A stretch of DNA of 64,000 nucleotides from Chloroflexota bacterium (lineage in GTDB: Bacteria > Chloroflexota > UBA11872 > VXOZ01): positions 192,001 to 256,000 of the forward strand of contig OY760183.1 of assembly GCA_963663275.1 (NCBI GenBank), in the 5' to 3' direction. Position 1 is the first letter of the stretch. Each line of letters opens with the position of its first letter. The notes below the pieces were generated by a model that saw nothing but the letters and a program-made list of their open reading frames with translations, was not told where the DNA came from and made no database searches. Made by a program: the position numbers and the translations under genes. This document shows positions 588 to 33,876 of this stretch, piece by piece.

Positions 588-1292
588 TCACGAACCATAC
601 GGCGCGTGTGACGCTACCGCCGGATTCTCCCGGTCGTATTCCCAACGCGCCGGGTTGCTGCGAATGTACTCCCGAATCTTTGCCAGAGATTCCTCGCCGC
701 GCACCACGTGCTCGAAGTAGTTGCGCTGCCAGAGGGAGTTGCCGGGGAGACCATGCGCGCGATTGACCTGTTTTGTGCTGACGGTTTTGAATGCGCCAAT
801 CAATCGTCCCAAAGGCTTGCGCTTCCCACCGGTAGGGGCAGTTCGCGAACCGTCCGTGCGCACGCCGTCGTCCCCTCCCTCGGTAGGGGCAGTTCGTGAA
901 CTGCCCACGTGCGCGCCATCGTCCTCACCGGTAGGGGCAGTTCGCGAACTGCCCCTACGCGCGCCGTCGTCCTCACCGGTAGGGGCAGTTCGCGAACTGC
1001 CCCTACGAGTGTCGTCACTGATCATGATGAGGCCGTGGAGATGGTTCGGCATCACCACGAATTCGTCCAGCGTCACATAGGGATATTGCGTCTCCAGCCA
1101 TTGCCACGCATCAGTCACCAAACGGCCGGTATCGCTCAGACGCACGGCTCCATCAACCACCTCGCCCAACAGACACGCCCGCCCTTGCACCACAATCGTC
1201 ACAAAGTAAACGCCCGCCTGCGAGTAGTCATAACCTCGCAGGCGGACCGATCGGCGGTTGCGGCTAGCTGGCCGCGTGTTGGAACGAATCAC
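588..1292 (-). mobile_element. REP-associated tyrosine transposase (RAYT/TnpA-REP, Y1 HUH)
   Basis: RRSVRLRGYDYSQAGVYFVT N-terminus, MPNHLHG HUH motif, WQRNYFEHVVR, IREYIRSNP catalytic Tyr. Confidence 0.92.
832..1006. repeat. Four GTAG-type REP palindromes inside the RAYT ORF
   Basis: GTAGGGGCAGTTCGCGAACTGCCCCTAC at 931 and 979 (perfect), 883 and 832 (degenerate); 48-51 bp period, frame-preserving. Confidence 0.92.
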
Positions 1293-3986: not shown

Positions 3987-4223
3987 TTAACCGAGGTGTT
4001 TCAGCACCTCGTCGTGTTCGGGGAAGCGGCCTGTCTGGTGTTTGGAGAAGATGACGGTGTTATCGAGGGTGACCTCGAAGGCGCCGCCGCCGGAGGGGAT
4101 GAGTTCCAGGCTTTCCAGGTTGAATTCGTACTCGCTCAGCACTTTTTCCGTCAAACTGACGGCTTTGGGGAGGTAGCCTCACGAGGTGCAGTATTCGATG
4201 CTCAGGCGCTGCTTGGCGGCCAT
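3987..4223 (-). CDS. SelW/SelT/SelH (Rdx family) selenoprotein, 78 aa, Sec at codon 15
   Basis: MAAKQRLSIEYCTS(TGA)GYLPKAVSLTEKVL...LIPSGGGAFEVTLDNTVIFSKHQTGRFPEHDEVLKHLG; CxxU motif; AAGGAG SD; not in the ORF track. Confidence 0.93.
4148..4181 (-). promoter_or_regulatory. Putative bacterial SECIS element
   Basis: UGA at 4181-4179, followed 16 nt later by hairpin CCGUCA-GUU-UGACGG with G in the apical loop. Confidence 0.75.
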
Positions 4224-4341
4224 GGGTGTGCTCCTTCCGGCTCGCTGTACGTTGGTTCTGTCGTTCTTTATTCAGTATGACTCTTCTTGCGCGTTTCGGT
4301 CAACGGCGCGGGTCGCAAATGCGCGTCTACACGGTGGAAGA

Positions 4342-4400
4342 CGCAGGTTACAAACCTGCGCTACCGGAAGCACGGCTTCCAGGTTGCATACCCGCGCTAC
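4342..4400. repeat. GTAG-type REP pair (CGCAGGTTnCAAACCTGCGCTAC family)
   Basis: Same unit recurs near 20510, 45579 and 57459-57581. Confidence 0.8.
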
Positions 4401-4649
4401 CGGTCTGAGATGGAGAATGCCCGCGCGTCCCATGGGAACCCGCCGTACAGGGGATGCCGCGCGCGGCGGTCTTTTTCCGCAAAAGACCGTCTCTTGGCGG
4501 CGCATTGTGGCTTGCGCGGGATAGAGCGGCTTGGTACCCTATGGTATGGCTACTTTGGGCGTGGGTGTTGCCGTTCCGAAGCCACGCCGCTTCGAACCGC
4601 AACGCGCGCGCTGCCGCTTAACTGAAGGCAGGGAGAAGGTACAGTAGTC

Positions 4650-5900
4650 ATGAGTGAACCGCAACCAGAGCAGCCGGAGGACCTGGCGCGGTCCAACGGC
4701 CACGTGCGCGTGAGCGTGCGCAACGTTTGGAAAGTGTTCGGCCCGGTAGCGGGCCCGGACGTGGCGGAGACCCTGGAGGGCAAGACCAAGGACGAGGTGC
4801 AGGACGAACTGGATTCCGTGCTGGCGCTGCACGACGTGAGTTTCGACGTGCAGCAGGGCGAGACGTTCGTGGTGATGGGCCTCTCCGGCAGCGGCAAGTC
4901 CACGCTGGTGCGCTGCCTCATCCGGCTCATCGAGCCGACCTCCGGCCAGGTCATCGTCGACGGCGAGGACGTCCTCAGCCAGACCGATGAGGAACTCACC
5001 CAGACGCGGCGGCAGAAGACCGGCATGGTCTTCCAGTATTTCGGCCTGCTGCCCCACCGCACGGTGATCGACAACGCCGCCTGGGGCCTGGAGGTGCAGG
5101 GGGTTCCCGCGGAGGAGCGCCGCGAGCGGGCGGCCGAGGTGCTGCGCATCGTCGGCCTGGAAGGCTGGGAAGACTACCGCCCGGCGGCCCTCAGCGGCGG
5201 CATGCAGCAGCGCGTCGGCCTGGCGCGGGCGCTGGCCTGCGACCCGGAAATCCTGCTGATGGACGAGCCGTTCAGCGCGCTGGATCCGCTCATCCGGCGG
5301 GACATGCAGAACGAACTCATCCGCCTGCAGGAGCAGATGCACAAGACCATCATCTTCATCACGCACGACCTGGTGGAGGCCACCAAGCTGGGCAGCCGCA
5401 TCGCCATCATGCGCGACGGCGCGATCGTCCAGATCGGCACGCCGGAAGAGATCATGGCGAATCCGGCGGACGACTACGTGGCCGACTTCACCCGCGACGT
5501 GCGCACCTCGTCGGTGGTCACCGTGGGCTACGTGATGGAAGAATGCCCGGTGCAGGCGCAGAGCGGAGCGGCGCCGGCGGAGACGCTGGCCGCGCTGGAG
5601 GCGGCTGACGCCGATTGCGCGTTCGTCGCCGCTGAAGACGGCGCGTACCAGGGCGAGATCAGTTTGGACGACGTGAGCGAGGCCGCCGCCAACGGCGACG
5701 ACACCATCGATAGCGCCGTAGAACGGCGGCGCGAGCCGGTGGAAACCGGGCAGTGCATCGAGGAGGCCCTCTCCCAGGCCTGGCCCTACGAGGGCAGCAT
5801 TCCCGTGGTGGACGAAGAAGAACGCCTGGTGGGGACGGTCGAGCGCGACACGCTGGCCGAAGCCGTGTTTTCCGAAGTGCGCGAGGAGGCCGGCGCTTAG
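4650..5900 (+). CDS. proV: Glycine betaine/proline ABC transporter ATP-binding subunit with CBS domains
   Basis: VMGLSGSGKSTL, LSGGMQQRVGLARAL, LLMDEPFSALDPLIRRDMQ. Confidence 0.93.
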   Translation: MSEPQPEQPEDLARSNGHVRVSVRNVWKVFGPVAGPDVAETLEGKTKDEVQDELDSVLALHDVSFDVQQGETFVVMGLSGSGKSTLVRCLIRLIEPTSGQVIVDGEDVLSQTDEELTQTRRQKTGMVFQYFGLLPHRTVIDNAAWGLEVQGVPAEERRERAAEVLRIVGLEGWEDYRPAALSGGMQQRVGLARALACDPEILLMDEPFSALDPLIRRDMQNELIRLQEQMHKTIIFITHDLVEATKLGSRIAIMRDGAIVQIGTPEEIMANPADDYVADFTRDVRTSSVVTVGYVMEECPVQAQSGAAPAETLAALEAADADCAFVAAEDGAYQGEISLDDVSEAAANGDDTIDSAVERRREPVETGQCIEEALSQAWPYEGSIPVVDEEERLVGTVERDTLAEAVFSEVREEAGA

Positions 5901-23348: not shown

Positions 23349-26300
23349 ATGGATGAAACTGAAGACACCGCCCAACTCAGCGACCTGGCCGCCGGCATCC
23401 TGCGGCGGCACGACAACCGCGAGCCCGAGGCCAACATCACCAGCGCCGTGCGCCGATTCCTCACCGACACCGGCCTGGTAAGCGAGGCAGACATCCAGGA
23501 GGAGAATCCGCCCACACAAGGTTCGCGCCAGGCCGTAGACCTGCGCGCGCTGGACACCTTCATCGAGTTCAAGCGCCGCGTCGGCCCCGGCGGCATCACG
23601 CCCAACCCCGATTACGTGCGCCAACTCGACGACTACCTGTCGCAGTCCGCGGCCGCGGGCAAGAGCGTGCGCCTGGGCATCCTGACCGACGGTAAGCACT
23701 GGCTGCTGCGCTGGCCCGGCGCCGGGGCGGTGCGCACCGCGCGCCCGTACGCCTTCATCCTCGAATCTCCTGAAAGCGGCGCCGCTCTTTACACCTGGCT
23801 GCGGGACGAGGCCTTGGCCGCCACCCAGCAGACCCAACCCGACCGGCAGAGCATCACGGCGCGTTTCGGGCCGGACAGCCTGCTGTACCAGCGCGACATC
23901 GACACCCTGCGGCAGCTTTACCAGTCTACCGCCGCCAGCGAGACCATCGCCGTCAAGCGCCGCCTCTGGCACAACCTGCTCATGGCGGCCCTGGGCGAGA
24001 TTGCCCGCGGCCGGCAGCAGATGGACGACCTCTTCGTCCGCCACACCTATCTCAGCATGACCATCGGCATGGTGGTGCAGGCCTCGTTTGGCATTGACAT
24101 TGCCGAAGTCGCGGCCAGCGATCCCGCCGCGCTGCTGCACGGCCGCCGCTTCCACAACGCCACCGGCCTGCACGGCATCGTGGAGTCGGACTTCTTTGCC
24201 TGGCCGGCCGAGGTGGAGGGCGGGCTGGCGCTGGTCAAGACCCTGGCGCGGCGCGTGGCGCGGTTCGATTGGACCCAGGCCCCGGCCGACGTGGGCGCGA
24301 TTCTCTACGAAACCGTCATTCCGCCCGACGAGCGCCGCCAACTGGGCGAATACTACACGCCGGACTGGCTGGCGCGGGTGATGGTGCGCGAGTTGGTCGC
24401 CGAACCGCTTGACCAACGGGTGCTGGATCCGGCCTGCGGTTCCGGCACCTTCATCGTGGAAGCCGTGGCGCATTTTTTGGAAGCGGCACGCGCGGCAAAC
24501 CTCGCGCCTGACATAGTTATGGAAAAACTACGGCTGGCGGTGACCGGCATCGACGTGCATCCGGTGGCGGTGCACCTGGCCCGCGCCGCGTGGACGCTGG
24601 CGGCGCGCCCGGCCATCATGGCCGCCGCCCGCGCCGGCTACAGCAATCCCATCTCCGTGCCGGTCTACCTGGGCGACGCGCTGCAACTGCGCTTCCACAC
24701 CGGCGACATGATTGCTGCCAATGAGGTGCGCATCGAGGTTGAAGACGAACAGAACACGACCCTGATCTTCCCGACCTCTCTGGTGGCCCGCGCCGACACC
24801 TTCGACCCGCTGCTGAGCGACGTGGCCGACGCCACCGAACGCGGCGCCGACCCCCGCGTGGCCCTGGACGACCACGCCGTCACCGACCCCTACGAGCGCG
24901 AAACCCTGCGACACACCATCGCCGCAATGCAACGCCTCCACGCCGCCGGCCGCGACCACATCTGGGCCTACTACACCCGCAACCTCGTCCGCCCCGTCGT
25001 CCTCAGCCGCGAAAAAGTGCACGTAATCATCGGCAACCCACCGTGGCTGAACTACAACCAAACTGTGAGCACCCTGCGCACCGCATTGGAAGACCTGAGC
25101 AAGGACCGCTACGGCATCTGGACCGGCGGCCGCTACGCCACCCACCAGGACGTGGCCGGCCTCTTCTTCACCCGCTGCGTTGACCTCTACCTACGAGACG
25201 GCGGCGTGATCGGCATGGTGTTGCCCCACAGCGCGCTGCAAACGGGACAGTACACCAAGTGGCGCACCGGCCTCTGGCGCTCCAAACCACAGGGCCGGGG
25301 CCGCAACCGCACGCCTACGCTCACCTTGTCGGTGGAGTTCGACTACAAGCGGGCCTGGGACTTGGAACGGCTGGAACCCAATACCTTCTTCCCGATACCT
25401 GCCTGTGTTGTCTTTGCGCAGAGCACCGGCGATAGCGGAGTGGCGAACGCCCTAAAGGGAACCGTCGAGCGGTGGCGCGGCAAGACCGGGGCAGACGACA
25501 ACCACAGGGAGCCTATGCCCATCACCGACACATCAGATATTGGCGATTCTCATTACGCCAAGCACGCAAAACAAGGAGCGGTGATTGTACCTCGCTGCCT
25601 GTTCTTCGTGCACGAGGGCGAAAACCCGGCCATCATCCAGGCCGGCCAAACGGTCATTGTTAACCCACGACGAGGAACTTATGACAAGGAGCCGTGGCGC
25701 GGCCTTGACCTTTCACTAATCGCTGGTCAGGCCATTGAGCGTCAGCATGTCTTTGACGTGCACTTGGGAGAGACTGTTGTACCCTACGCTACGCTTGACG
25801 CTCTCAAGGCGGCGCTACCGCTAAAACGGGATGACACCACTCCGCCTGCCGACCCGAACGGAGTGGGCGGTATCCGCCTCGGTGGACTGGATAGACGGAT
25901 GCGCGAACGCTGGCAGACCGCTAGTTCTTTGTGGGAAGAGAACAAAGCGGCAGCCAACGAACTGGACTTGCTGGGTCAGTTAGACTATTACGGCAAACTG
26001 TCTGCACAACTCGAATGGCGGCAGAATCTCTCTACCAGACCCGTTCGCGTAGTCTATAATTCCTCGGGCACGCCGACAGCGGCATTGCTCTGCGACGATG
26101 ACGCTTTGGTTGATTACACGCTGTTTTGGATTGCCTGTAACAATGTCCAAGAAGCCTACTACCTGCTAGCAATCATCAACAGCGATGCCCTGTACGAGGC
26201 CGTAACCCCGTTGATGGCTAAAGGCCAGTTCGGCGCACGCCATCTACAGAAGCACCTCTGGAAACTCCCCATCCTCGCATTCGACCCATCCGTCCCCCTC

Positions 26301-26486
26301 CACGCCGCCATAGCCGACGCCGGCCAAACTGCCGCCACCGCCGCCGCCCACCAACTCGAGCAACTCCGCGCTACCCGCCCCCGACTCACCGTAACCATAG
26401 CCCGTCGCGAACTCCGCAAATGGCTCCGCGCGTCTACCGAAGGCCAAGCCGTTGAGGAAGTGGTCAAGAAGCTATTGAACGGCTAG
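23349..26486 (+). CDS. Type IIG-like fused restriction endonuclease / N6-adenine methyltransferase
   Basis: N-terminal VD...IEFKR and GILTDG; LGEYYTPDW, VLDPACGSGTF, IIGNPPW; C-terminal TRD-like region (YLLAIINS). Confidence 0.9.
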   Translation: MDETEDTAQLSDLAAGILRRHDNREPEANITSAVRRFLTDTGLVSEADIQEENPPTQGSRQAVDLRALDTFIEFKRRVGPGGITPNPDYVRQLDDYLSQSAAAGKSVRLGILTDGKHWLLRWPGAGAVRTARPYAFILESPESGAALYTWLRDEALAATQQTQPDRQSITARFGPDSLLYQRDIDTLRQLYQSTAASETIAVKRRLWHNLLMAALGEIARGRQQMDDLFVRHTYLSMTIGMVVQASFGIDIAEVAASDPAALLHGRRFHNATGLHGIVESDFFAWPAEVEGGLALVKTLARRVARFDWTQAPADVGAILYETVIPPDERRQLGEYYTPDWLARVMVRELVAEPLDQRVLDPACGSGTFIVEAVAHFLEAARAANLAPDIVMEKLRLAVTGIDVHPVAVHLARAAWTLAARPAIMAAARAGYSNPISVPVYLGDALQLRFHTGDMIAANEVRIEVEDEQNTTLIFPTSLVARADTFDPLLSDVADATERGADPRVALDDHAVTDPYERETLRHTIAAMQRLHAAGRDHIWAYYTRNLVRPVVLSREKVHVIIGNPPWLNYNQTVSTLRTALEDLSKDRYGIWTGGRYATHQDVAGLFFTRCVDLYLRDGGVIGMVLPHSALQTGQYTKWRTGLWRSKPQGRGRNRTPTLTLSVEFDYKRAWDLERLEPNTFFPIPACVVFAQSTGDSGVANALKGTVERWRGKTGADDNHREPMPITDTSDIGDSHYAKHAKQGAVIVPRCLFFVHEGENPAIIQAGQTVIVNPRRGTYDKEPWRGLDLSLIAGQAIERQHVFDVHLGETVVPYATLDALKAALPLKRDDTTPPADPNGVGGIRLGGLDRRMRERWQTASSLWEENKAAANELDLLGQLDYYGKLSAQLEWRQNLSTRPVRVVYNSSGTPTAALLCDDDALVDYTLFWIACNNVQEAYYLLAIINSDALYEAVTPLMAKGQFGARHLQKHLWKLPILAFDPSVPLHAAIADAGQTAATAAAHQLEQLRATRPRLTVTIARRELRKWLRASTEGQAVEEVVKKLLNG

Positions 26487-26606
26487 CGTAAGCCATTGCC
26501 ACTTGCAACCCCCAATGCGAGCCTGACGGCAGACCAGTGACAAGACCCGCATCTTGTTGGTACATTGCCAGATAATCTGACGGAATTGCTCGAAGGGCGG
26601 CGAGTG

Positions 26607-27041
26607 ATGAATCTTCCATACCCAGAGCCAACGAGCGCCACTGCGACCAAGAAGATGCGCTCCAACCGTCGGGTCGATACGAAACCCGAAGTTGCGCTCA
26701 GGTCATTGCTGCACCGGCGAGGGCTGCGCTTCAGGAAAGATTACCCCATTCGCCTACCGAACGGTCGGACAGTACACCCGGACATCGTCTTCACCAGGAA
26801 GAAACTCGCCATATTCGTGGACGGCTGCTTCTGGCACTCATGCCCCGAACACGGCACGACGCCAAAGACCAACCAGGACTACTGGACTCCCAAGCTGCGG
26901 CAGAATGTCGAGAGGGACAAGAAAACAGACGACGGCTTGCGGACTAATGGATGGCAGGTCGTACGTATATGGGAACACACAGGTTCAGAAGATGCCATAG
27001 CCACGATCCAAGGGGCTCTGGCACAATCTTGCGTCACTTAA
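26607..27041 (+). CDS. vsr: Very short patch repair endonuclease
   Basis: MRSNRRVDTKPE, PDIVF, IFVDGCFWHSCPEH, VVRIWEH. Confidence 0.93.
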   Translation: MNLPYPEPTSATATKKMRSNRRVDTKPEVALRSLLHRRGLRFRKDYPIRLPNGRTVHPDIVFTRKKLAIFVDGCFWHSCPEHGTTPKTNQDYWTPKLRQNVERDKKTDDGLRTNGWQVVRIWEHTGSEDAIATIQGALAQSCVT

Positions 27042-29046
27042 AGTTTGGATTCATGGCTTTGATGTCTTCTATTGAAATGCTGTTAATTAGGCGGAATACT
27101 CTTCCTGCTTCTGTCTCTCGATCTAGGTAGTCCTCATACGCTTGTAGCGCATTATGGATCAATTCCTCATACCTAATCACTCGAGCCCTTGCTCCTTCAA
27201 GCGTTCTAGCTGACACTTCCCTTCCGCCGGGACTCGACCAATCTGACAATGGCTTGCCGATCAAGCAAATGAATTCTAGGGGTTCGTTAGACCTGCCATG
27301 AGACTCTAATACTTTGGAAACTCCAGTTCGGTACTTGAGGATCTGTTGCACCAATCCACCAGTTTCAAGCGGGCGACTTGCACGCTTCAGTTCGATTATC
27401 ACGTGTTTGTTTCCTGTTGTCGTATAACGAATGTCCAGTCTTGCGAGTCTTTGCTCTTCGGTAAGCGACTGGTAAACCTCGTCGAGCTTCCTAGCGATCT
27501 GGGTTTCCATTCGCGTAGTGTGAGTCGCACGTTCCCAGGATGGGTCCAGCAGCCATAGGTGTTTGTACAGGTGATCCTGAATCACTCTTTCCTTGGCGTC
27601 ATCGTCAATCAGGTCTGTCAGCTTATCTATAACTTCCAGCCGATCTTTGCTGATTTGGTAGTATGCGCTCGCCTCCAAATCATCAAGTTGACTGAAGACG
27701 TCACCGAGTGAACCTAAGTTTTCCGCCGATAGTTGCTCTATGCGATGTAAGAGATGCCGGAACTTCAAACTTTCAAATGCCAGTATTCCGCTGACGAACA
27801 GTTGTCGTTTTTGGCTAACGTCGTCAATTGGCAGTTGGTTGAATTTGCCGAACAATTGCTCTGCTGACCTCTTGTGATCAGGGCTGAGGCTTTCGTACCA
27901 TTCCTTGATTTGAGGAATTGTAACGGCAACTTTCCGTCCCTGATTGTTTCTCAGAACAGTCCAATCGCTTTGTATGGCTTTCAACTCGGACTGGAGTTTC
28001 GATCTCAGAGCCTGGTACCTCGGATCTTCCTCTATGATCCGCTGTCTGCTGGTGGTAGCGATGTCATCTGCATGATCTAGATCGAGGAAGTCAGCGTGGA
28101 TTTCCCCAATGATGTACTTGCTGTAAATTCCGCCTTCGCCAAACTCCTCCAGGATGTCTTCCTGGGCTAACTTCCCTCGTACCATTACTACAATCTTGTT
28201 TATGCTCTCGCCGGTGTCCGAATCTTTCAGTTGACCAGCTTCTTTGACCGTTCCAATCCAGCCGTCGATCGCAAACTTGGCTTCGCCTACTTCGACTTCC
28301 CCTGCGCGTGGCTTTTGGTGCTCCAAATTACTTGCAAGGGTACGAGCCTCTTCTCCACGTGCGCCGAATGTCCACATGTACTGAAGCTTGTCGTAGTAAT
28401 CACGATCCTCAATAGTAATCGGAGCACTGTCCAATTCGATTTCAAAGTGATGCTTAGCTCCTATGATGCTGAATCTGCGAGCGAGCCTGCGTCTCAAAGC
28501 TGAACTGGACCGATGAAGCTGGCGCTTCATATCGGTAAGGAATATCTTGGTACCTTTCGCAATCTCGACTCTCGCAGGATCGACAGGGTCAGGCGAGTAT
28601 TCATTGTCTTCGCTATCCGTAATAGCTTTCTCAATGTCGTCGAGGTTCATTCTGAAACCATGTCGCTTGCCCTGCTTCACACTGTGGACTTCGACGGTCC
28701 TTGCGATAGAGAATAGGGACAGCTTGCCAATCCCCTTTCGTCCCATCACTGGCCTTTGAAACCTTGGCGACCTGGCCCCGTCTTTCTGTTTGCGACGCTC
28801 GTAACCGACCGTCAGGTACCTGTCGTTCGCGTCGTCCACGCTCATGCCGTGTCCGTCGTCCTGGATCACGATCCTGTCGCCCCGAGGGTCGATCTCAATG
28901 ATCACGTGCTCGGCATCAGCATCCCACGCGTTGGCAACTACCTCTGAAAGGACTGCGGGCACGTTGCTGTAGAGCCCTAACCCCAAGTGCTTCAGCACAT
29001 TCAGATCCAGCGTCATCCTATATTTGTGTTCGCTGTCGTCAGTCAT
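27034..29046 (-). CDS. GHKL (MORC-like) ATPase with C-terminal PD-(D/E)xK nuclease-like domain
   Basis: EVVANAWDADA, IQDDGHGM, GRKGIGKLS; RLDIRY...VIIELKR. Confidence 0.85.
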   Translation of the reverse strand: MTDDSEHKYRMTLDLNVLKHLGLGLYSNVPAVLSEVVANAWDADAEHVIIEIDPRGDRIVIQDDGHGMSVDDANDRYLTVGYERRKQKDGARSPRFQRPVMGRKGIGKLSLFSIARTVEVHSVKQGKRHGFRMNLDDIEKAITDSEDNEYSPDPVDPARVEIAKGTKIFLTDMKRQLHRSSSALRRRLARRFSIIGAKHHFEIELDSAPITIEDRDYYDKLQYMWTFGARGEEARTLASNLEHQKPRAGEVEVGEAKFAIDGWIGTVKEAGQLKDSDTGESINKIVVMVRGKLAQEDILEEFGEGGIYSKYIIGEIHADFLDLDHADDIATTSRQRIIEEDPRYQALRSKLQSELKAIQSDWTVLRNNQGRKVAVTIPQIKEWYESLSPDHKRSAEQLFGKFNQLPIDDVSQKRQLFVSGILAFESLKFRHLLHRIEQLSAENLGSLGDVFSQLDDLEASAYYQISKDRLEVIDKLTDLIDDDAKERVIQDHLYKHLWLLDPSWERATHTTRMETQIARKLDEVYQSLTEEQRLARLDIRYTTTGNKHVIIELKRASRPLETGGLVQQILKYRTGVSKVLESHGRSNEPLEFICLIGKPLSDWSSPGGREVSARTLEGARARVIRYEELIHNALQAYEDYLDRETEAGRVFRLINSISIEDIKAMNPNFK

Positions 29047-30178
29047 GAAATCTCTCTAGGTGCGCGACTATGGACCTGCCAACCGCCTCGCCAAGCTTCA
29101 CGGGAACCGCATTGCCGATCAGCCGCGCCACTGAGGTGATCTGCACGGATTCTCCTGTTGGGACGAACGAGTAATCTCTTGGAAACGTCTGTAGCAGAGC
29201 GCCCTCGCGCAAGGATATAGCGCGGTCCTGGACCGGGTGGCCAAATCGCCCGTTGCCGTAGCCGTGGAACTGGGTGGTGATGGTTGGAGCAGGCCGGTCC
29301 CACTCCATGCGACCGTAGACGCTGGGATAGGTCTTGCCGGATTGCTTGACATGGCAGTCGGCGCGGAGGTCTTGACCGGATGCTGAATCCGCCCAATCCC
29401 GCCAGGTTCCGCCGGGCTTGGAATGCTGGACGCGCGCCAAGTTCGCAGCGGATAGTCCACTTGACTTGTGCAATGGGTCTAATGGGGACGCCTGCCCTGC
29501 TTCGATGTGCGGCAAATGCTGGATCGCATCCCTTACGGTCACGGAGTCACTATCGGCATGTGTCGGCGGGATCATTTGGATAGGGCCGAGCCTGGAGGCT
29601 AGCAACACCAAGCGCCTTCTCGATTGGGGTACACCGTAGTCGGCACAGTGAACTACAGAATAGTCGCAATAGTAGCCAGCGTTGCGCAAAGCGGCTTGGA
29701 ATTCATCGAAGACGGCATATCCCCGCAAGCGTGGGACATTCTCCATGGTGACGATCTCCGGCTGTAGCGCGGTGACCATTTCGCCAAACTTGGGTAGCAA
29801 TTGCCACTGGGCATCGCGTTCGAATCTGCGATTGGAGTAAGACGAAAACGGCTGACAGGGAGCGCAGCCCGCGAGAATCCTGATGACATTCGCCGGAAAC
29901 AGCGACTCGACGAATCGCGGCGATAGCGCGGCCACATCTTTCTCATAGAATGCAGCTTCGACATTTGCTTCGAACGGGTGTTTGCAAGCGGGGTCGATGT
30001 CGATCCCGGCGCGGATCGTGATGCCAGCGTGCTTCATGCCGTAGGAAAGCCCACCGGCGCCGCAAAAGAGGTCTACGGCAACTGGCTGTGAAGTTGGCTG
30101 CGTCTTGTCGATGGGGGCTTCAAGCCACATATCTCCGCCGCCAGTTGCTACTTGCGGTCTTGGAACTGCCTTCACCAT
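29039..30178 (-). CDS. dcm: DNA (cytosine-5) methyltransferase (alternative start 30130)
   Basis: DLFCGAGG, GCAPCQPFS, MENV, YGVPQSRRR, IGNAVP. Confidence 0.93.
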   Translation of the reverse strand: MVKAVPRPQVATGGGDMWLEAPIDKTQPTSQPVAVDLFCGAGGLSYGMKHAGITIRAGIDIDPACKHPFEANVEAAFYEKDVAALSPRFVESLFPANVIRILAGCAPCQPFSSYSNRRFERDAQWQLLPKFGEMVTALQPEIVTMENVPRLRGYAVFDEFQAALRNAGYYCDYSVVHCADYGVPQSRRRLVLLASRLGPIQMIPPTHADSDSVTVRDAIQHLPHIEAGQASPLDPLHKSSGLSAANLARVQHSKPGGTWRDWADSASGQDLRADCHVKQSGKTYPSVYGRMEWDRPAPTITTQFHGYGNGRFGHPVQDRAISLREGALLQTFPRDYSFVPTGESVQITSVARLIGNAVPVKLGEAVGRSIVAHLERFHD

Positions 30179-30237
30179 AGCCGACTCTGTTCACTTTGAG
30201 CAACTTTGGCTTGGAATCCCCACCTGGCGCCGCGCGG

Positions 30238-30822
30238 GTGAAGGACGTCCTGTGGGGGATGCAGGTGGGGGTGACGGTGTTGGCGGTGGTTCTGGGCGCG
30301 ATCTTTGCCGCCTACAAGTGGCAGGTCTTCCGCGAATCCGAGCCGCACCTGACGATCACCCACGAGGTATCCCACCGGCCCGTCGGCGCAAGCTACGTCC
30401 ACATCGCCGTGACCGCGGTTCTGCACAATAGTTCAAAGGTCAAAATGGAATTTCGCGAAGCGTTTTTTCTCATGCAGAAGATCTCCCCGGTGTCGGACGA
30501 GGAAATTGAAGCACTGTACGCTGAGTACGCTCAGGCATTTGAGCAAGGGGAGTACAAGAACATGCAGTGGGATACGCTTGACAAGATTCCCATCACCTGG
30601 GATGAAGACGTAGTGATCGTGGAACCGGGTGAAATGCATCAAGAAACGTGCGAGTTCATCGTGCCGAAGGACGTTAAGTCGGCTATCATATACTCATATT
30701 TCTATAACTCTCGGGTGCCGCAGGTTCCTCAAGGATGGGGCGCGACTACAGTCCACGACATAGCGGCCCGTGATTGCGGGAGTGTCGATGTGGAAGGAGA
30801 TTGCAATGCCAGCCAAGAATGA
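30238..30822 (+). CDS. Hypothetical protein with N-terminal TM anchor and beta-rich soluble domain; start uncertain (30196/30238/30259)
   Basis: VTVLAVVLGAIFAAY TM segment; open frame; its 3' end is re-copied downstream with mostly synonymous changes, which supports coding. Confidence 0.75.
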   Translation: MKDVLWGMQVGVTVLAVVLGAIFAAYKWQVFRESEPHLTITHEVSHRPVGASYVHIAVTAVLHNSSKVKMEFREAFFLMQKISPVSDEEIEALYAEYAQAFEQGEYKNMQWDTLDKIPITWDEDVVIVEPGEMHQETCEFIVPKDVKSAIIYSYFYNSRVPQVPQGWGATTVHDIAARDCGSVDVEGDCNASQE

Positions 30823-30964
30823 GAAGAAAAGAGGAGATGTCGCCATAAAAGGAGGCGGGCCGAGGCAGAGTCCTCCCAAACGTGAGCCCCCGGTCAAACC
30901 ACCAGGAGCGAGCAAGCCTAAACCCGCGTCCAATCCACCGCAGCAATCCAAGCCGGCCAAGTGA
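30806..30964 (+). CDS. Pro/Lys-rich peptide P1 (52 aa)
   Basis: AAGGAG SD; MPAKNEKKRGDVAIKGGGPRQSPPKREPPVKPPGASKPKPASNPPQQSKPAK. Confidence 0.75.
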   Translation: MPAKNEKKRGDVAIKGGGPRQSPPKREPPVKPPGASKPKPASNPPQQSKPAK

Positions 30965-31000
30965 GCGCCGCCGGGCGGCACGGCGGTTGAACCTTGATCG

Positions 31001-31111
31001 ATGCCGTTGGCGTCCAGGCAGGTAGTCGCCTACTACAATTCGAGAGTGCCGCAAGTTCCCCAGGGTTGGGGCGCGACCGCGATTCACGACATAGCTGACC
31101 ATGGTCAATGA
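31001..31111 (+). pseudogene. Orphan C-terminal fragment of the 30238-30822 gene
   Basis: MPLASRQVVAYYNSRVPQVPQGWGATAIHDIADHGQ; 19/21 aa identical to 30703-30765. Confidence 0.75.
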
Positions 31112-31135
31112 GCAGTAGTGTAAAGGAGGGTTACA

Positions 31136-31279
31136 ATGCCGGCAAGTTCCAAGGTGCAAAGAGAAAGTGTCGGGCCAAAAGGCGGCGGGCCCAAGAAGAG
31201 GCCGCCCAAAGTTCCTTCCAAGAAACCACCGGGAGCAACTCCGCCTAAGCCTCCCCAATCGTCGAAGCCATCCAAGTGA
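31136..31279 (+). CDS. Pro/Lys-rich peptide P2 (47 aa)
   Basis: AAGGAGG SD; MPASSKVQRESVGPKGGGPKKRPPKVPSKKPPGATPPKPPQSSKPSK. Confidence 0.75.
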   Translation: MPASSKVQRESVGPKGGGPKKRPPKVPSKKPPGATPPKPPQSSKPSK

Positions 31280-31338
31280 ACGCCAATCGAAGAGGCTGCT
31301 GGAACGAAGGACTCCAGCCGTTCCAATTGGAGAGCATG

Positions 31339-31701
31339 ATGCCGGAGGAAAGAGAAGCCAGCAAGAGCAGGCCGGTCAGGAGTGGAACGGGCCCAAGGGT
31401 TCGACTTGAACAGTTACCGCCTGAGAAACGCATAGCGGGCAAGAGCGGCACGGGTCCGAAAGAGAATCCGCCGCTGGTGAAGACTTCGCGCAAGCCGCCG
31501 GGCGGATTGGGGTTGACCAAAGCCTCGATAAGGTCGACTATGCCAGCCGACGAAGAGTGCACCAATAGAGTGGTCATCAAGAAGGGAACGGGGCCAAAGC
31601 AGAGGCCCCCTATGACTGCTTCCTCAGGTAAACCCCCGGGCGGCCCGCCTAAACCCAAACCCTCATCTCCACCTCACAAGCAACCGCAATCATCCAATTG
31701 A
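31339..31701 (+). CDS. Fused Pro/Lys-rich peptide units P3a + P3b (internal ATG at 31540)
   Basis: MPEEREASKSRPVRSGTGP...SGTGPKENPP...KPPGG, then MPADEECTNRVVIKKGTGPKQRPPMTASSGKPPGGPPKPKPSSPPHKQPQSSN. Confidence 0.65.
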   Translation: MPEEREASKSRPVRSGTGPRVRLEQLPPEKRIAGKSGTGPKENPPLVKTSRKPPGGLGLTKASIRSTMPADEECTNRVVIKKGTGPKQRPPMTASSGKPPGGPPKPKPSSPPHKQPQSSN

Positions 31702-31791
31702 AGGCAGGCAAGCCGCCGAAGGCCGGGGCGCGACGACCCTCCATGCTATTGTGGAAATGTAACCGCACAGTATGCGCTCATGGAGGTTGCA

Positions 31792-31950
31792 ATGCCAGAC
31801 AACGAGAAAGGCAATGAGACACAGGTCGTCATTAAAGGGACAGGACCAAGAACCGCGCCTCCCAAAGCCGATTCTTCCGGGAAACCCCCGCGAGCGAGCA
31901 GGCCTAAACCCGCGTCCAATCCACCGCAGCAATCCAAGCCGGCTAAGTGA
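31792..31950 (+). CDS. Pro/Lys-rich peptide P4 (52 aa)
   Basis: GGAGG SD; MPDNEKGNETQVVIKGTGPRTAPPKADSSGKPPRASRPKPASNPPQQSKPAK. Confidence 0.75.
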   Translation: MPDNEKGNETQVVIKGTGPRTAPPKADSSGKPPRASRPKPASNPPQQSKPAK

Positions 31951-32074
31951 GCGGCGCCAGGCGCGTTGCCTCAATCTACCTTGCCCCCATGCCTAAGGCT
32001 GGCGCTGGGGCTCCCCAGATAGTTCGCTAGCCGCCTCGGCTCAATAACCTAACCCCTGAGCACTGTCCTCGACA

Positions 32075-32857
32075 TTAAAGCTGCGGCACGCACACTTTGC
32101 CGCCGCGGGCCACGGGCAGGCCGGCGAAGGCGCAGCGGTTGCCCCACTGGTCGATGGCCGCTTTGGACTTGTATTCGTTGATGACCTTGTGGCGGGACGT
32201 GTGGCTGTAGTTATTGCCGGCGGTATGCAGCACCATCACGTGGATGAAGAGCACGTCGCCGGGCTTGGCGATCATCGGCACCGGGTCGTAGTCCGCCACC
32301 TTCTCGTCGGCTACGGTATGGCCGTGTGACGTCTCCCACTCGCCCATCAGGTGGCTGCCGGGCAGCACCGTGGTCGCGCCCGCGTCGACGTCATTGGCAT
32401 CCAGGTAGATGATGGCCGCCGCCAGTTCCGACTTACTGTGGCGCTCGTAGGGCCAGTCCTGGTGCCAGCCCTGTTCATTCGTGAAGCCCGGCGGATTGTT
32501 GCGCACCTTGCCGTTGTGGAAGTCGATGTCCGGGCCGAAGAGGTCGATGAAGACGTTCACTATGCGGGGGTCGGTAACGTTGTTGAACCAGTAATCGCTC
32601 GCCAACGGCTGGTCCATGATGCCCTGCACGTTCTTGGGGTTATAGGGGTCGATGGGATACCCCTCCGCCTGCTCCATGAAGGTGTATCTTATAGCCTCAG
32701 GACGGCCGTCCGTATTGGTGATGAGGTCATGGAACTCCCGCCGCATCTCCTCAATCTCAGCGGCGTTGTACAAGCCCTCCATCACGAGATACCCGTTATC
32801 GTCGAAGAACTGCTTCTGCTCCGGCGCCAAAGTCACCAGTTGCATAGTACTTGCCAT
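32075..32857 (-). CDS. Phytanoyl-CoA dioxygenase (PhyH) family Fe/2OG enzyme
   Basis: FFDDNGYLV, WHQD, VLPGSH, KPGDVLF...H. Confidence 0.88.
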   Translation of the reverse strand: MASTMQLVTLAPEQKQFFDDNGYLVMEGLYNAAEIEEMRREFHDLITNTDGRPEAIRYTFMEQAEGYPIDPYNPKNVQGIMDQPLASDYWFNNVTDPRIVNVFIDLFGPDIDFHNGKVRNNPPGFTNEQGWHQDWPYERHSKSELAAAIIYLDANDVDAGATTVLPGSHLMGEWETSHGHTVADEKVADYDPVPMIAKPGDVLFIHVMVLHTAGNNYSHTSRHKVINEYKSKAAIDQWGNRCAFAGLPVARGGKVCVPQL

Positions 32858-33187
32858 CGTTTCCTCTCCTAATTCTGCCGTGCTCGAATTCGTCGATGGT
32901 GAGCACACCTTGTTCGATTATACAACCTTCTGCGCGAGGCTGGCATGGGGGCGTTCGCACCCGCCTGCGGAGCCCGCGCGCATGGCCTTGCGGAGCGCCA
33001 CTTCAGGCCGATAGCGCCGGTTGCGCGGGAAAAACGCCATGCGGAAGACCACCTCCGCAAACCGTCTTGCGTTACTATGAACTTTAGACTATCGACTGTC
33101 AATAGTACAGTCGCGAATCGAGACAGAACAAGGCTGGATATAGTAGTCTGGGATTGGAGTTTCGCATCGAGCAACGGGAGTGTCCTC

Positions 33188-33430
33188 ATGGAGATCCTGG
33201 TCAGAGAGTACGCCGTATACGAGGACAAACGGGCTGAATTAGAAGCCGAATTCATGGGCAAGTGGGTCGTCATATGCGGTGACGACTTCCTGGAAGTGTA
33301 TGAAACCTTCCAGGTCGCCGCCGATCAAGCGGCGCAGAAGTTCGGCCGCGGCCCATACCTCATCGAGGAGATCGGCAGAGACCACGCGGCCCGGCTGCCT
33401 ACTTCCGTGATGTACGGCACGAGAGTATGA
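33188..33430 (+). CDS. Small DUF5678-like protein
   Basis: GKWVVI...FG...PYLIEEIG pattern; GGGAG SD; ATGA overlap with the protease. Confidence 0.6.
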   Translation: MEILVREYAVYEDKRAELEAEFMGKWVVICGDDFLEVYETFQVAADQAAQKFGRGPYLIEEIGRDHAARLPTSVMYGTRV

Positions 33431-33876
33431 GCGGTAAGAGCCTGGATCTTCTGCGCAACGGGCCCACCCTGCCCGTTCACATAGGGTTTCATCCCACGTA
33501 CCGGCTAGGCAGTAGCGCCATCGACGCCGATGTGCTAAGCGCGCTCTTCGAGCCATGCTCAGCGCTCATAGACACCGGCGCCTCCGTCAGTTGCATTGAC
33601 GACGATCTCGCCAGAGAGCTGGAACTGCCTGCCGTTGCGGTACGTACGATAGCCGGCGTCACCGGCGCGGCGACGTACTTCGAGTATTCCGCTCAGATTT
33701 TCGTTCCCGAGTTGGATAGGCTCGTCTATGGTGAGGTCGTTGGCGTCAACCTGGCCGAGATCGACCGCGAGTATCGCGTGTTGCTGGGGCGAGACTTCCT
33801 GCAGTATTGCAGAATGGTCTACGACGGCATCGCCGGTGAGGTCAGCTTGACCGACTATTCACTGCCTGCAAATTAG
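33427..33876 (+). CDS. Retropepsin-like (clan AA) aspartyl protease
   Basis: ALIDTGASVSCI, VLLGRDFL. Confidence 0.85.
   Translation: MSGKSLDLLRNGPTLPVHIGFHPTYRLGSSAIDADVLSALFEPCSALIDTGASVSCIDDDLARELELPAVAVRTIAGVTGAATYFEYSAQIFVPELDRLVYGEVVGVNLAEIDREYRVLLGRDFLQYCRMVYDGIAGEVSLTDYSLPAN

Follow-up and report, generated by a model that had tools for sequence, protein, structure and literature searches.

To our knowledge, stacks of orphan cassettes, a hallmark of genes under diversifying conflict, have until now been associated with secreted toxins of large size and the proteins that give immunity to them. In the rhs and cdi systems, orphan rhs-CT/rhsI and cdiA-CT/cdiI modules lie downstream of the main toxin gene, and recombination of the main gene with such a fragment can re-attach a stored cassette (Koskiniemi et al. 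2014, PMC3967940); at the esaG and tipC loci, strings of non-identical immunity genes recombine between conserved blocks (Garrett et al. 2022, PMC9484751). The locus described here lies in a 64,000-nucleotide stretch ("the window", whose coordinates are used throughout) of the genome of a sponge-associated Chloroflexota bacterium of an uncultured lineage. It consists of a gene for a membrane-anchored protein, here called MEM, followed by four small genes for basic peptides (P1 to P4) with truncated 3′ ends of MEM among them. As a whole it is best explained as a stack, built by recombination, in which allelic forms of a single conserved module have accumulated; the module has two genes, MEM and that of a basic leaderless peptide. 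We give this reading a probability of roughly 0.8.

The locus resembles the rhs and cdi orphans in that 3′ fragments lacking the 5′ part of the gene, each with its own small partner, lie downstream of a full gene, both in the window and in two genomes of the same genus (G009, at the locus G009:C2, and G011; G numbers denote genomes and L numbers loci), and in that the cassettes are diverged alleles with active copies in other strains. It differs from them in that MEM has ~215 amino acids (aa), is membrane-anchored rather than a large exported toxin and has no known toxin domain, and in that the MEM stubs hold only the conserved last strand (15–60 codons), where the toxin orphans have an entire variable toxin domain. 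As its partner MEM has a disordered peptide rich in Lys and Pro. The likeness is one of architecture only. As at esaG and tipC, there are tandem non-identical small genes with a conserved block (the P1/P4 3′ end) able to serve as a crossover site, and gain, loss and reshuffling between strains; unlike those loci, whose products are folded immunity proteins against type VII secretion system (T7SS) toxins of Firmicutes, this one has ∼50-aa disordered peptides, interleaved stubs of the upstream gene and no known toxin.

The initial annotation, made from the window alone, had likened the locus to displaced orphan C-terminal (CT)/immunity cassettes of polymorphic toxin loci. That orphan-cassette reading is supported for the architecture, but MEM itself does not belong among the polymorphic toxins. 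The demarcation motifs of such toxins are VENN and PxxxxDPxGL, and neither was seen by eye in the MEM alignment; secretion genes (CdiB, type VI secretion system, T7SS) are absent within ∼4.5 kb on each side of 13 loci of the genus (50 of the 92 listed open reading frames) and from the 4-kb flanks of four distant loci.

Organization of the stack

The features of the locus are as follows.

30196..30822, + strand: MEM, resident membrane-anchored beta-sandwich gene (208 aa from a TTG; the called gene, P0001, has 194 aa)
30806..30964, + strand: P1, 52-aa Lys/Pro-rich peptide, type A (GGAG 6 bases ahead of its ATG)
30905..30977, + strand: conserved P1 3′ end, recurring as the P4 3′ end at 31891–31963
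30967..31030, − strand: stub of a PhyH-like dioxygenase gene, ∼21 codons, at the junction of cassettes A and B (DNA match to the interior of PhyH)
31028..31111, + strand: stub 2, last 27 codons and stop of a type-B MEM allele (inside an open frame, 31001–31111)
31136..31279, + strand: P2, 47-aa peptide, type B (AAGGAGG ahead of its ATG)
31336..31701, + strand: P3, 121-aa in-frame fusion of a type-E (31336–31539) and a type-D peptide (internal ATG at 31540), recognized by DNA matches
31709..31762, + strand: stub 3, decayed last 17 codons and stop of a type-C MEM allele (contiguous alignment with P4 to G011)
31792..31950, + strand: P4, 52-aa peptide, type C (GGAGG ahead of its ATG)
31951..32013, no strand assigned: 3′ flank travelling with cassette C (G011 homology extends to 32013, and the flank of X5, a contig described below, resumes at 32013)

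The order is MEM with a type-A 3′ part and P1, the PhyH-like stub, the type-B stub and P2, the E+D fusion P3, the type-C stub and P4, the flank, and then a PhyH-family dioxygenase gene. Each of the five peptide types (A–E) is closest to a peptide behind MEM in other genomes of the same genus. Types A, B, C and E are each immediately preceded by a full-length MEM in another member of the genus, and the best DNA matches of type D are likewise behind MEM; the E-type peptide is the second peptide, behind a MEM stub, in G009:C2 and G011 and the first in G005 and G004. Cassette A (30340–30954) is 80–81% identical to G003/G015. Stub 2 and P2 (31030–31279) align as one block to G009:C2 (82% over 251 bases), where the counterpart of the stub is the end of a full-length MEM (...GATAIHDIDDRGQ), followed by its peptide, and stub 3, P4 and the next 60 bases (31709–32013) align as one block to the gene end and peptide of G011 (74% over 306 bases). 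These blocks bear out the earlier proposal that the repeat unit is the MEM 3′ end plus a peptide gene.

The observation from which that proposal came is confirmed. The MEM end at 30703–30765 (YNSRVPQVPQGWGATTVHDIA) reappears at 31034–31096 (YNSRVPQVPQGWGATAIHDIA) with 19 of 21 translated residues identical; nine codons are identical, ten differ synonymously and two non-synonymously (T>A and V>I), with 15 of 63 bases changed (11 transitions, 4 transversions). When 15 changes were placed at random positions with the observed transition share, none of 100,000 simulations gave two or fewer amino-acid changes, and the minimum obtained was three. This synonymous bias is present because both alleles diverged as full-length genes under selection; no selection on stub 2 need be assumed. 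The copies had been ascribed to diverged functional alleles, and the full-length alternatives, for which a search had been suggested as a check, were indeed found: stub 2, which retains all invariant MEM residues, is 90% identical over 82 bases to the full-length G009 3′ end and 76% over 71 bases to the resident MEM, and among relatives there are proteins ending in ...GWGATAIHDIDDRGQ (P0002, P0009) and ...GWGATAIHDINDHGQ (P0008).

An independent repeat search recovers the same pair (30702–30772 and 31033–31103, 76%) and the third MEM end (31719–31754, 72%). In a whole-genome search with MEM the only matches are the full copy and stub 2 (E 4.2e-8 for the stub), and a hidden Markov model of the MEM family matches stub 2 at profile positions 188–214 (E 2.1e-5). 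The third copy, at 31709–31762, is present but decayed, as had been noticed (QAAEGRGATTLHAIVEM*, ending at its stop); R replaces an invariant W and A a nearly invariant D. The 3′ ends of P1 and P4, described earlier as nearly identical, agree at 68 of 73 bases (30905–30977 and 31891–31963), with a perfect run of ∼41 bases counted by eye; the 106-base repeat pair that covers them is identical at 89 positions. Three features had escaped the initial annotation: the resident MEM has lost its first membrane helix to a restriction-modification unit inserted next to it, P3 combines two additional cassette types in one frame, and the spacer ahead of stub 2 is a stub of a PhyH-like gene.

Other loci have the same design. 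G009:C2 has a 61-codon MEM stub between its first and second peptides, and this arrangement recurs in an independent metagenome record (L061); the stub of G011 is frameshifted.

Junctions, mosaic MEM and a possible mechanism

The 64-base PhyH-like stub matches the PhyH interior of G009, G011 and G005 at 74–77%; against the window's own PhyH (32354–32428) it scores 50, where the best of 200 shuffles scores 30, and it translates to CLDANGIDQGSTAVPPGGAHL versus YLDANDVDAGATTVLPGSHL. It lies between P1 and stub 2, and therefore a non-homologous join brought a piece of the flanking gene into the stack. By sliding-window identity, the resident MEM is itself a mosaic of three parts. The first (30226–30315) is 76–93% identical to G009/G005b/G006 and only 46–55% to G003/G015, the second (30316–30405) is 86–95% identical to G011, and the third (30436–30705) is 83–93% identical to G003/G015; therefore crossovers inside MEM exchanged the 3′ two-thirds of the gene along with the peptide. 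Cassette swapping by recombination, proposed in the initial annotation, is borne out by this mosaic, by the variation of the locus across the genus and by the reordered cassettes of the X5 contig.

A scheme of this kind would run as follows. A new allele would arrive by homologous crossover within the conserved part of MEM, with breakpoints in the window near 30316 and 30420, and its far end would be attached through an illegitimate join or through another crossover, this one in the conserved peptide 3′ end. The body of the old gene would be deleted, and its last 15–60 codons, with the peptide gene, would be displaced downstream as an orphan. Later crossovers, between full gene and stub or between two peptide 3′ ends, could reorder or re-attach cassettes. 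The shared P1/P4 3′ end is likely a downstream crossover or gene-conversion tract, and it is a plausible second crossover site. Frameshifts in the G004 and G013 MEM genes were considered as gene decay and dropped; each is a single-base deletion and could be a sequencing error.

Variation in other sequence collections

A contig from another study (X5; 2,192 bases, depth ∼8, short reads), which is known by its alignment to the window at 85% likeness or more, matches the window in the order 30228–30416, 342 unmatched bases, 31747–31887, 30902–31095, 31184–31279, 377 unmatched bases, 30687–30977 and 32013–32114. Read plainly, its MEM is of normal length, is in the first 190 bases ∼96% like the window's, and has a type-C end; a P4-like peptide lies behind it, next are the same PhyH stub as in the window, stub B and P2, and cassette A is last, as an orphan starting at 30687. 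The switch from P4-like to P1-like sequence lies at the conserved peptide 3′ end (31887 to 30902). In that reading the contig would carry the window's cassettes rearranged, and the type joined to the full-length gene would be a different one.

Peptide genes

The peptides are products of real genes, because each has a Shine-Dalgarno sequence and an ATG, the ratio of nonsynonymous to synonymous substitution rates (dN/dS) is 0.11–0.26 between orthologs, they share a motif, and at least one lies downstream of every MEM 3′ end. Indeed, among distinct genome loci with a MEM 3′ end, 22 of 22 have a peptide gene behind it, as do 8 of 8 such metagenome loci, although these include duplicates of one another or of G009; the second-site locus of G005, the sole one without a MEM 3′ end, has no peptide gene either. 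The peptide dN/dS is near that of MEM (0.11–0.18). The P1 start overlaps the MEM stop by 17 bases, and P1 is 69–71% identical to the G015/G003 peptides (dN/dS 0.17–0.22). P2 begins after a gap of 24 bases from stub 2, and its dN/dS is 0.26 against G009 and 0.11 against G013. Within P3, 31440–31505 of the E part matches the E-type peptides of G009, G011, G005 and G004 at 74–77%, and 31567–31603 of the D part matches the D-type peptides of G008 and G010 at 84–86% (DNA); at the protein level the D part aligns with the G001 and G006 peptides (35–40% identity to P1). P4 is 58% identical in protein to the first peptide of G011 (dN/dS 0.25).

The peptides are very basic and proline-rich, with ∼45–75 codons. 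An alignment of 25 gives M-P-x4-K-x5-V-x2-K-G-x-G-P-K-x2-P-P-K-x3-S-x-K-P-P-G-G, in which, apart from the start, one position is invariant and four are nearly so; the core motif is GP[KR]xxPP...KPPG, and with spacing the module motif is M-P...V..KG.GP[KR]..PP(K)...KPPG. No leader (signal or double-glycine) and no hydrophobic or amphipathic stretch was seen by eye among the 25. A protein-database search with P1 found one relative among three candidates, because gene callers seldom call such small genes. A role as polyproline-stalling leader peptides (PPG and PPK are conserved) was dropped, because the peptides lie behind a gene and not ahead of one that they could regulate.

Two minus-strand open frames, 30746–31258 (170 codons) and 31245–31658 (137 codons), oppose the peptide genes; most likely these frames are not genes and arise from the richness of the coding strand in AAR and CCN codons. 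The AT skew is +0.34 to +0.37 at 30800–31800. At L024 (G032), two genes of the peptide family, 968–1165 (+) and 1188–1409 (−), converge, a layout that a second, inverted module would leave on losing MEM.

The MEM protein

MEM proteins have 208–250 aa and are typically ∼215 aa long. The AlphaFold model of the full-length relative P0002, built from 83 aligned sequences, has a predicted local distance difference test score of 86.5, with N-terminal helices at residues 6–28 and 33–69 and then a beta-sandwich at 72–211; MEM is accordingly modeled as two N-terminal helices plus an immunoglobulin (Ig)-like beta-sandwich. Residues ∼72–211 superpose on the Ig-like sandwiches of ApaG, the luminal (LEA-2-like) domain of TMEM106B and GH2 (Foldseek E 2e-5 to 3e-4; by VIA, Z 10.3–11.9 and root-mean-square deviation 2.3–3.3 over 103–117 residues), but sequence identity to these proteins is 5–13%, and the common fold implies no family membership or function. 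In distant homologs a lipoprotein-type signal and one membrane helix lie ahead of the domain (by eye); the sandwich most likely faces the cytoplasm, because this signal stands in place of the first helix of MEM.

The family is large. A word-indexed protein search finds 287 relatives of MEM, and the MEM profile matches 1,630 clusters (50% identity) with an E cutoff of 1e-3; the number falls to 974 with a cutoff of 1e-10 and to 107 with 1e-30. The domain itself is divergent among alleles (50–70% DNA identity). No family among the PADLOC-DB 2.0 defense models matches MEM, P1 or P3 at E up to 0.01, and eleven distant MEM homologs give only sub-threshold noise in the libraries. The best PDB sequence matches, a 7.5-kDa complex I subunit for MEM (E 0.019) and GAGA factor for the peptide profile (E 8), are at chance level; an ESM Atlas search returns unnamed clusters only. 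A scan of viral contigs with the MEM profile found no relative, though the scan was pattern-based, so that absence is not implied, and a full-text literature search for four MEM/peptide motif strings found no paper. Four distant homologs (P0258, P0190, P0219 and P0241) have long disordered C-terminal tails fused to the sandwich domain; the P0258 tail is Pro/Lys/Arg-rich (...RPRPPAPPRPPQRPPDTKQQPPKPPPPPKK) and the other three are acidic. The P0258 tail hints that the separate peptide might be a detached MEM tail.

The resident copy lacks ∼31 codons, the first membrane helix, that all full-length relatives have. Its frame begins 18 bases from the start codon of a dcm gene on the opposite strand (30179–30235), its homology to other alleles begins only at ∼30223–30234, and contigs of X3 (another sequence collection) and X5 depart from the window upstream of 30228. 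The junction at its 5′ end is specific to this strain, and the resident copy may be impaired.

Genomic setting and distribution

The genes that flank the stack are as follows.

29039..30178, − strand: dcm-type C5 cytosine methylase, edge of a strain-specific insert (Pfam, PADLOC; relatives hold other genes in this slot)
32075..32908, − strand: PhyH-family dioxygenase, conserved right flank (PF05721, E 4.7e-27; syntenic in G009, G011 and G005)

The module occurs in 11 of 16 other genomes of the genus, in 4 of 6 genomes of one further genus and in 9 of 401 genomes of a phylum sample. Within the genus it is found at two places. The first, site 1, follows an ABC-2 transporter operon and precedes a ceramidase-like gene; nine loci there, with single cassettes (G001, G003, G004, G005, G008, G009:C20, G010, G013 and G015), are on the same strand as the operon, and in the window's own genome the transporter is present at this site without MEM. 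Site 2, that of the window, extends from a type IIG restriction-modification gene to PhyH and is common to G009:C2, G011, G006 and G005. Stacks and stubs are confined to site 2. A functional link of the module to the ABC-2 transporter was dropped, given the window genome's site without MEM and the other neighbors in other lineages, as was a link to PhyH, which is found neither at the other site nor in more distant loci.

At site 2, the slot between the IIG gene and MEM is variable: in the window it is occupied by genes for Vsr, a GHKL-type endonuclease and Dcm, in G009 by HEPN-TPR and in G006 and G011 by DUF5677. The frames of the window insert overlap (Vsr 26565–27041; GHKL-ATPase endonuclease 27034–29046, PADLOC REase_II, E 1e-102; Dcm 29039–30178), and the adjoining type IIG enzyme has 1,045 aa (PADLOC REase_MTase_IIG, E 5e-62); both lie within 23349–30178. 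The Vsr/GHKL/Dcm unit is not in the corresponding slot of relatives, and it has removed the 5′ end of the resident MEM. GC content is 0.47–0.50 at 26800–28200, against ∼0.6 around it. In L039 (G009:C2; 7906–9543), L035 (G005; 4057–5826), L037, L042 and L036, the slot beside MEM holds TPR and HEPN_LA2681 proteins or one or two DUF5677 proteins, and its contents suggest an insertion hot spot for defense-type genes. Elsewhere, MEM lies 22 bases behind a IIG gene in L010, and L005 and L009 are near BglII/MT-A70 and PIN/HTH/PaREP1 genes.

Beyond PhyH, two small overlapping frames occupy 33190–33876; the first is conserved beside PhyH in G011, and the second (33427–33876) has, by eye, a D-T-G-A-S motif like that of retropepsin-type aspartic proteases. 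An Rfam search of 29500–32500 at E up to 1 found no RNA family.

Possible function and alternative explanations

MEM and its peptide could be a cognate cytoplasmic conflict pair, with the anchored variable domain as the putative effector and the basic, proline-rich peptide as the partner that would neutralize or trigger it; we hold this assignment, the leading one, tentatively, at somewhat less than even odds. Orphan peptide genes would then be kept since they still act on related MEM types. The module is like type II toxin-antitoxin and small defense modules in several ways: its two genes form a compact operon in which the frames overlap or adjoin, its distribution is patchy and it moves horizontally, it lies beside restriction-modification, HEPN and PIN genes, and the larger gene is often broken with the small partner intact. 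MEM is damaged by 5′ loss in the window, internal deletion in G006, 3′ loss in G005b and anchor deletion in G020. Unlike in type II toxin-antitoxin operons, the large gene comes first, and no known toxin or antitoxin family is matched in PADLOC, Pfam or NCBIfam. A complex prediction for MEM residues 44–200 with P1, both as alignments, scored 0.01 without controls and speaks neither for nor against binding. A fuller proposal is slightly less likely than this: a new polymorphic intracellular conflict module with a constant anchor, an exchangeable sandwich and a matching exchangeable disordered peptide, in which displaced peptides would be banked as spare partners and one crossover would switch the expressed pair, with no secretion involved.

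The strongest competitor, which we consider unlikely but far from negligible, is an ordinary role outside conflict, for example that of a membrane scaffold with a disordered basic partner (the detached C-terminal tail), the stack being neutral recombination debris in a hot spot. The fused Pro/Lys/Arg-rich tail of the distant homolog P0258 fits such a role, both chromosomal sites are variable for other genes also, the stubs require no function, and the defense and toxin libraries have no match. Nevertheless, a conflict module fits better than a housekeeping pair because of the diversification under purifying selection, the patchiness, the damage to MEM, the orphan partners and the defense-island neighbors: presence is patchy even inside the genus, the alleles are strongly diversified in the domain yet under purifying selection, restriction-modification, HEPN and PIN genes are repeatedly adjacent, and intact orphan peptide genes have dN/dS values as low as attached ones.

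It is improbable that the peptides are secreted or released antimicrobials (leaderless, cationic and proline-rich), with MEM as an immunity protein or export helper in a bacteriocin/immunity-type polymorphic region. Their small size, strong basicity and proline content, the several types at one locus, the polymorphism and orphans that suit competition loci, and the same-strand ABC-2 operon just ahead of the module at nine loci of the genus would all agree with this; but unlike the products of class II or leaderless bacteriocin loci the 25 aligned peptides have neither leader nor hydrophobic core, the transporter link is confined to one site of one genus (where the window's own genome has the transporter but lacks MEM), neighbors elsewhere are unrelated with no processing enzyme conserved nearby, and the MEM domain is probably cytoplasmic.

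As to the origin of the stack, in-place tandem duplication of the MEM 3′ end and peptide with slow divergence, the stubs being selected as small genes or as leader frames for the next peptide, is very improbable. Stub 2 does lie in an intact 36-codon ATG frame (31001–31111) with every invariant residue kept, and its differences from the resident MEM are mostly synonymous; however, that bias is accounted for by divergence as full-length alleles, stub 2 is nearer another genome's full-length gene than the neighboring MEM, and the best donor differs for each unit. In addition, a PhyH-like stub lies at one junction, conserved residues are missing from stub 3, no stub accompanies P3, and a strong ribosome-binding site of its own precedes P2.

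An assembly artefact, with strain variants of a single-cassette locus strung together in metagenome assembly, is highly improbable, since even though the genome comes from a mixed sample and contig depths in X1, a source-like run, are uneven (60 for 29132–30945, 18 for 30916–31272, 4.8 for 31448–31931 and 29 for 32057–32526; these depths are not rankable), the unit borders of the window are bridged by contigs of X3 (30857–31396) and X2 (31118–31703, 31686–31865 and 31897–32255), G009:C2 and the independent metagenome record show the same design, and the junctions hold MEM and PhyH stubs and not clean repeats. The uneven X1 depths may reflect co-existing strains with different stacks.

Several points weigh against the stack of exchangeable conflict cassettes as we read it. 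The evidence from X5 is one short-read contig with 342 + 377 bases unaligned, and it could be a chimeric assembly. At site 1 the module is single and without stubs, and therefore stacking is a property of one site and not of the module. The locus may be inert in this strain, because the window's full copy lacks the first membrane helix and a recognizable promoter; the scan for promoters and terminators gave no promoter-like site and three terminator-like sites, not above shuffles. MEM and the peptides have no match in Pfam, NCBIfam or PADLOC, and the MEM fold is a generic Ig-like sandwich. Taken alone, stub 3 is ambiguous in type (its identity to C is 76% over 54 bases and that to E is 83% over 35), and the agreement of stub type with peptide type is explained by linkage alone.

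Implications

The locus has a genome architecture of known kind, here in a new unannotated gene pair; a hallmark associated with large secreted toxins is found in a 215-aa membrane-anchored protein and a 50-aa disordered peptide. Recognizing the MEM/peptide pair annotates many loci together, as the superfamily is large and the peptide is almost never called, and the system is compact, with two genes that can readily be synthesized for toxicity, neutralization or defense assays. The locus is also a clear natural case of cassette exchange by intragenic crossover, in which the junction stubs record the order of events. If the proposed reading is true, an unannotated family of more than 1,600 clusters would, by analogy with orphan toxin/immunity loci, practice cassette switching without secretion.

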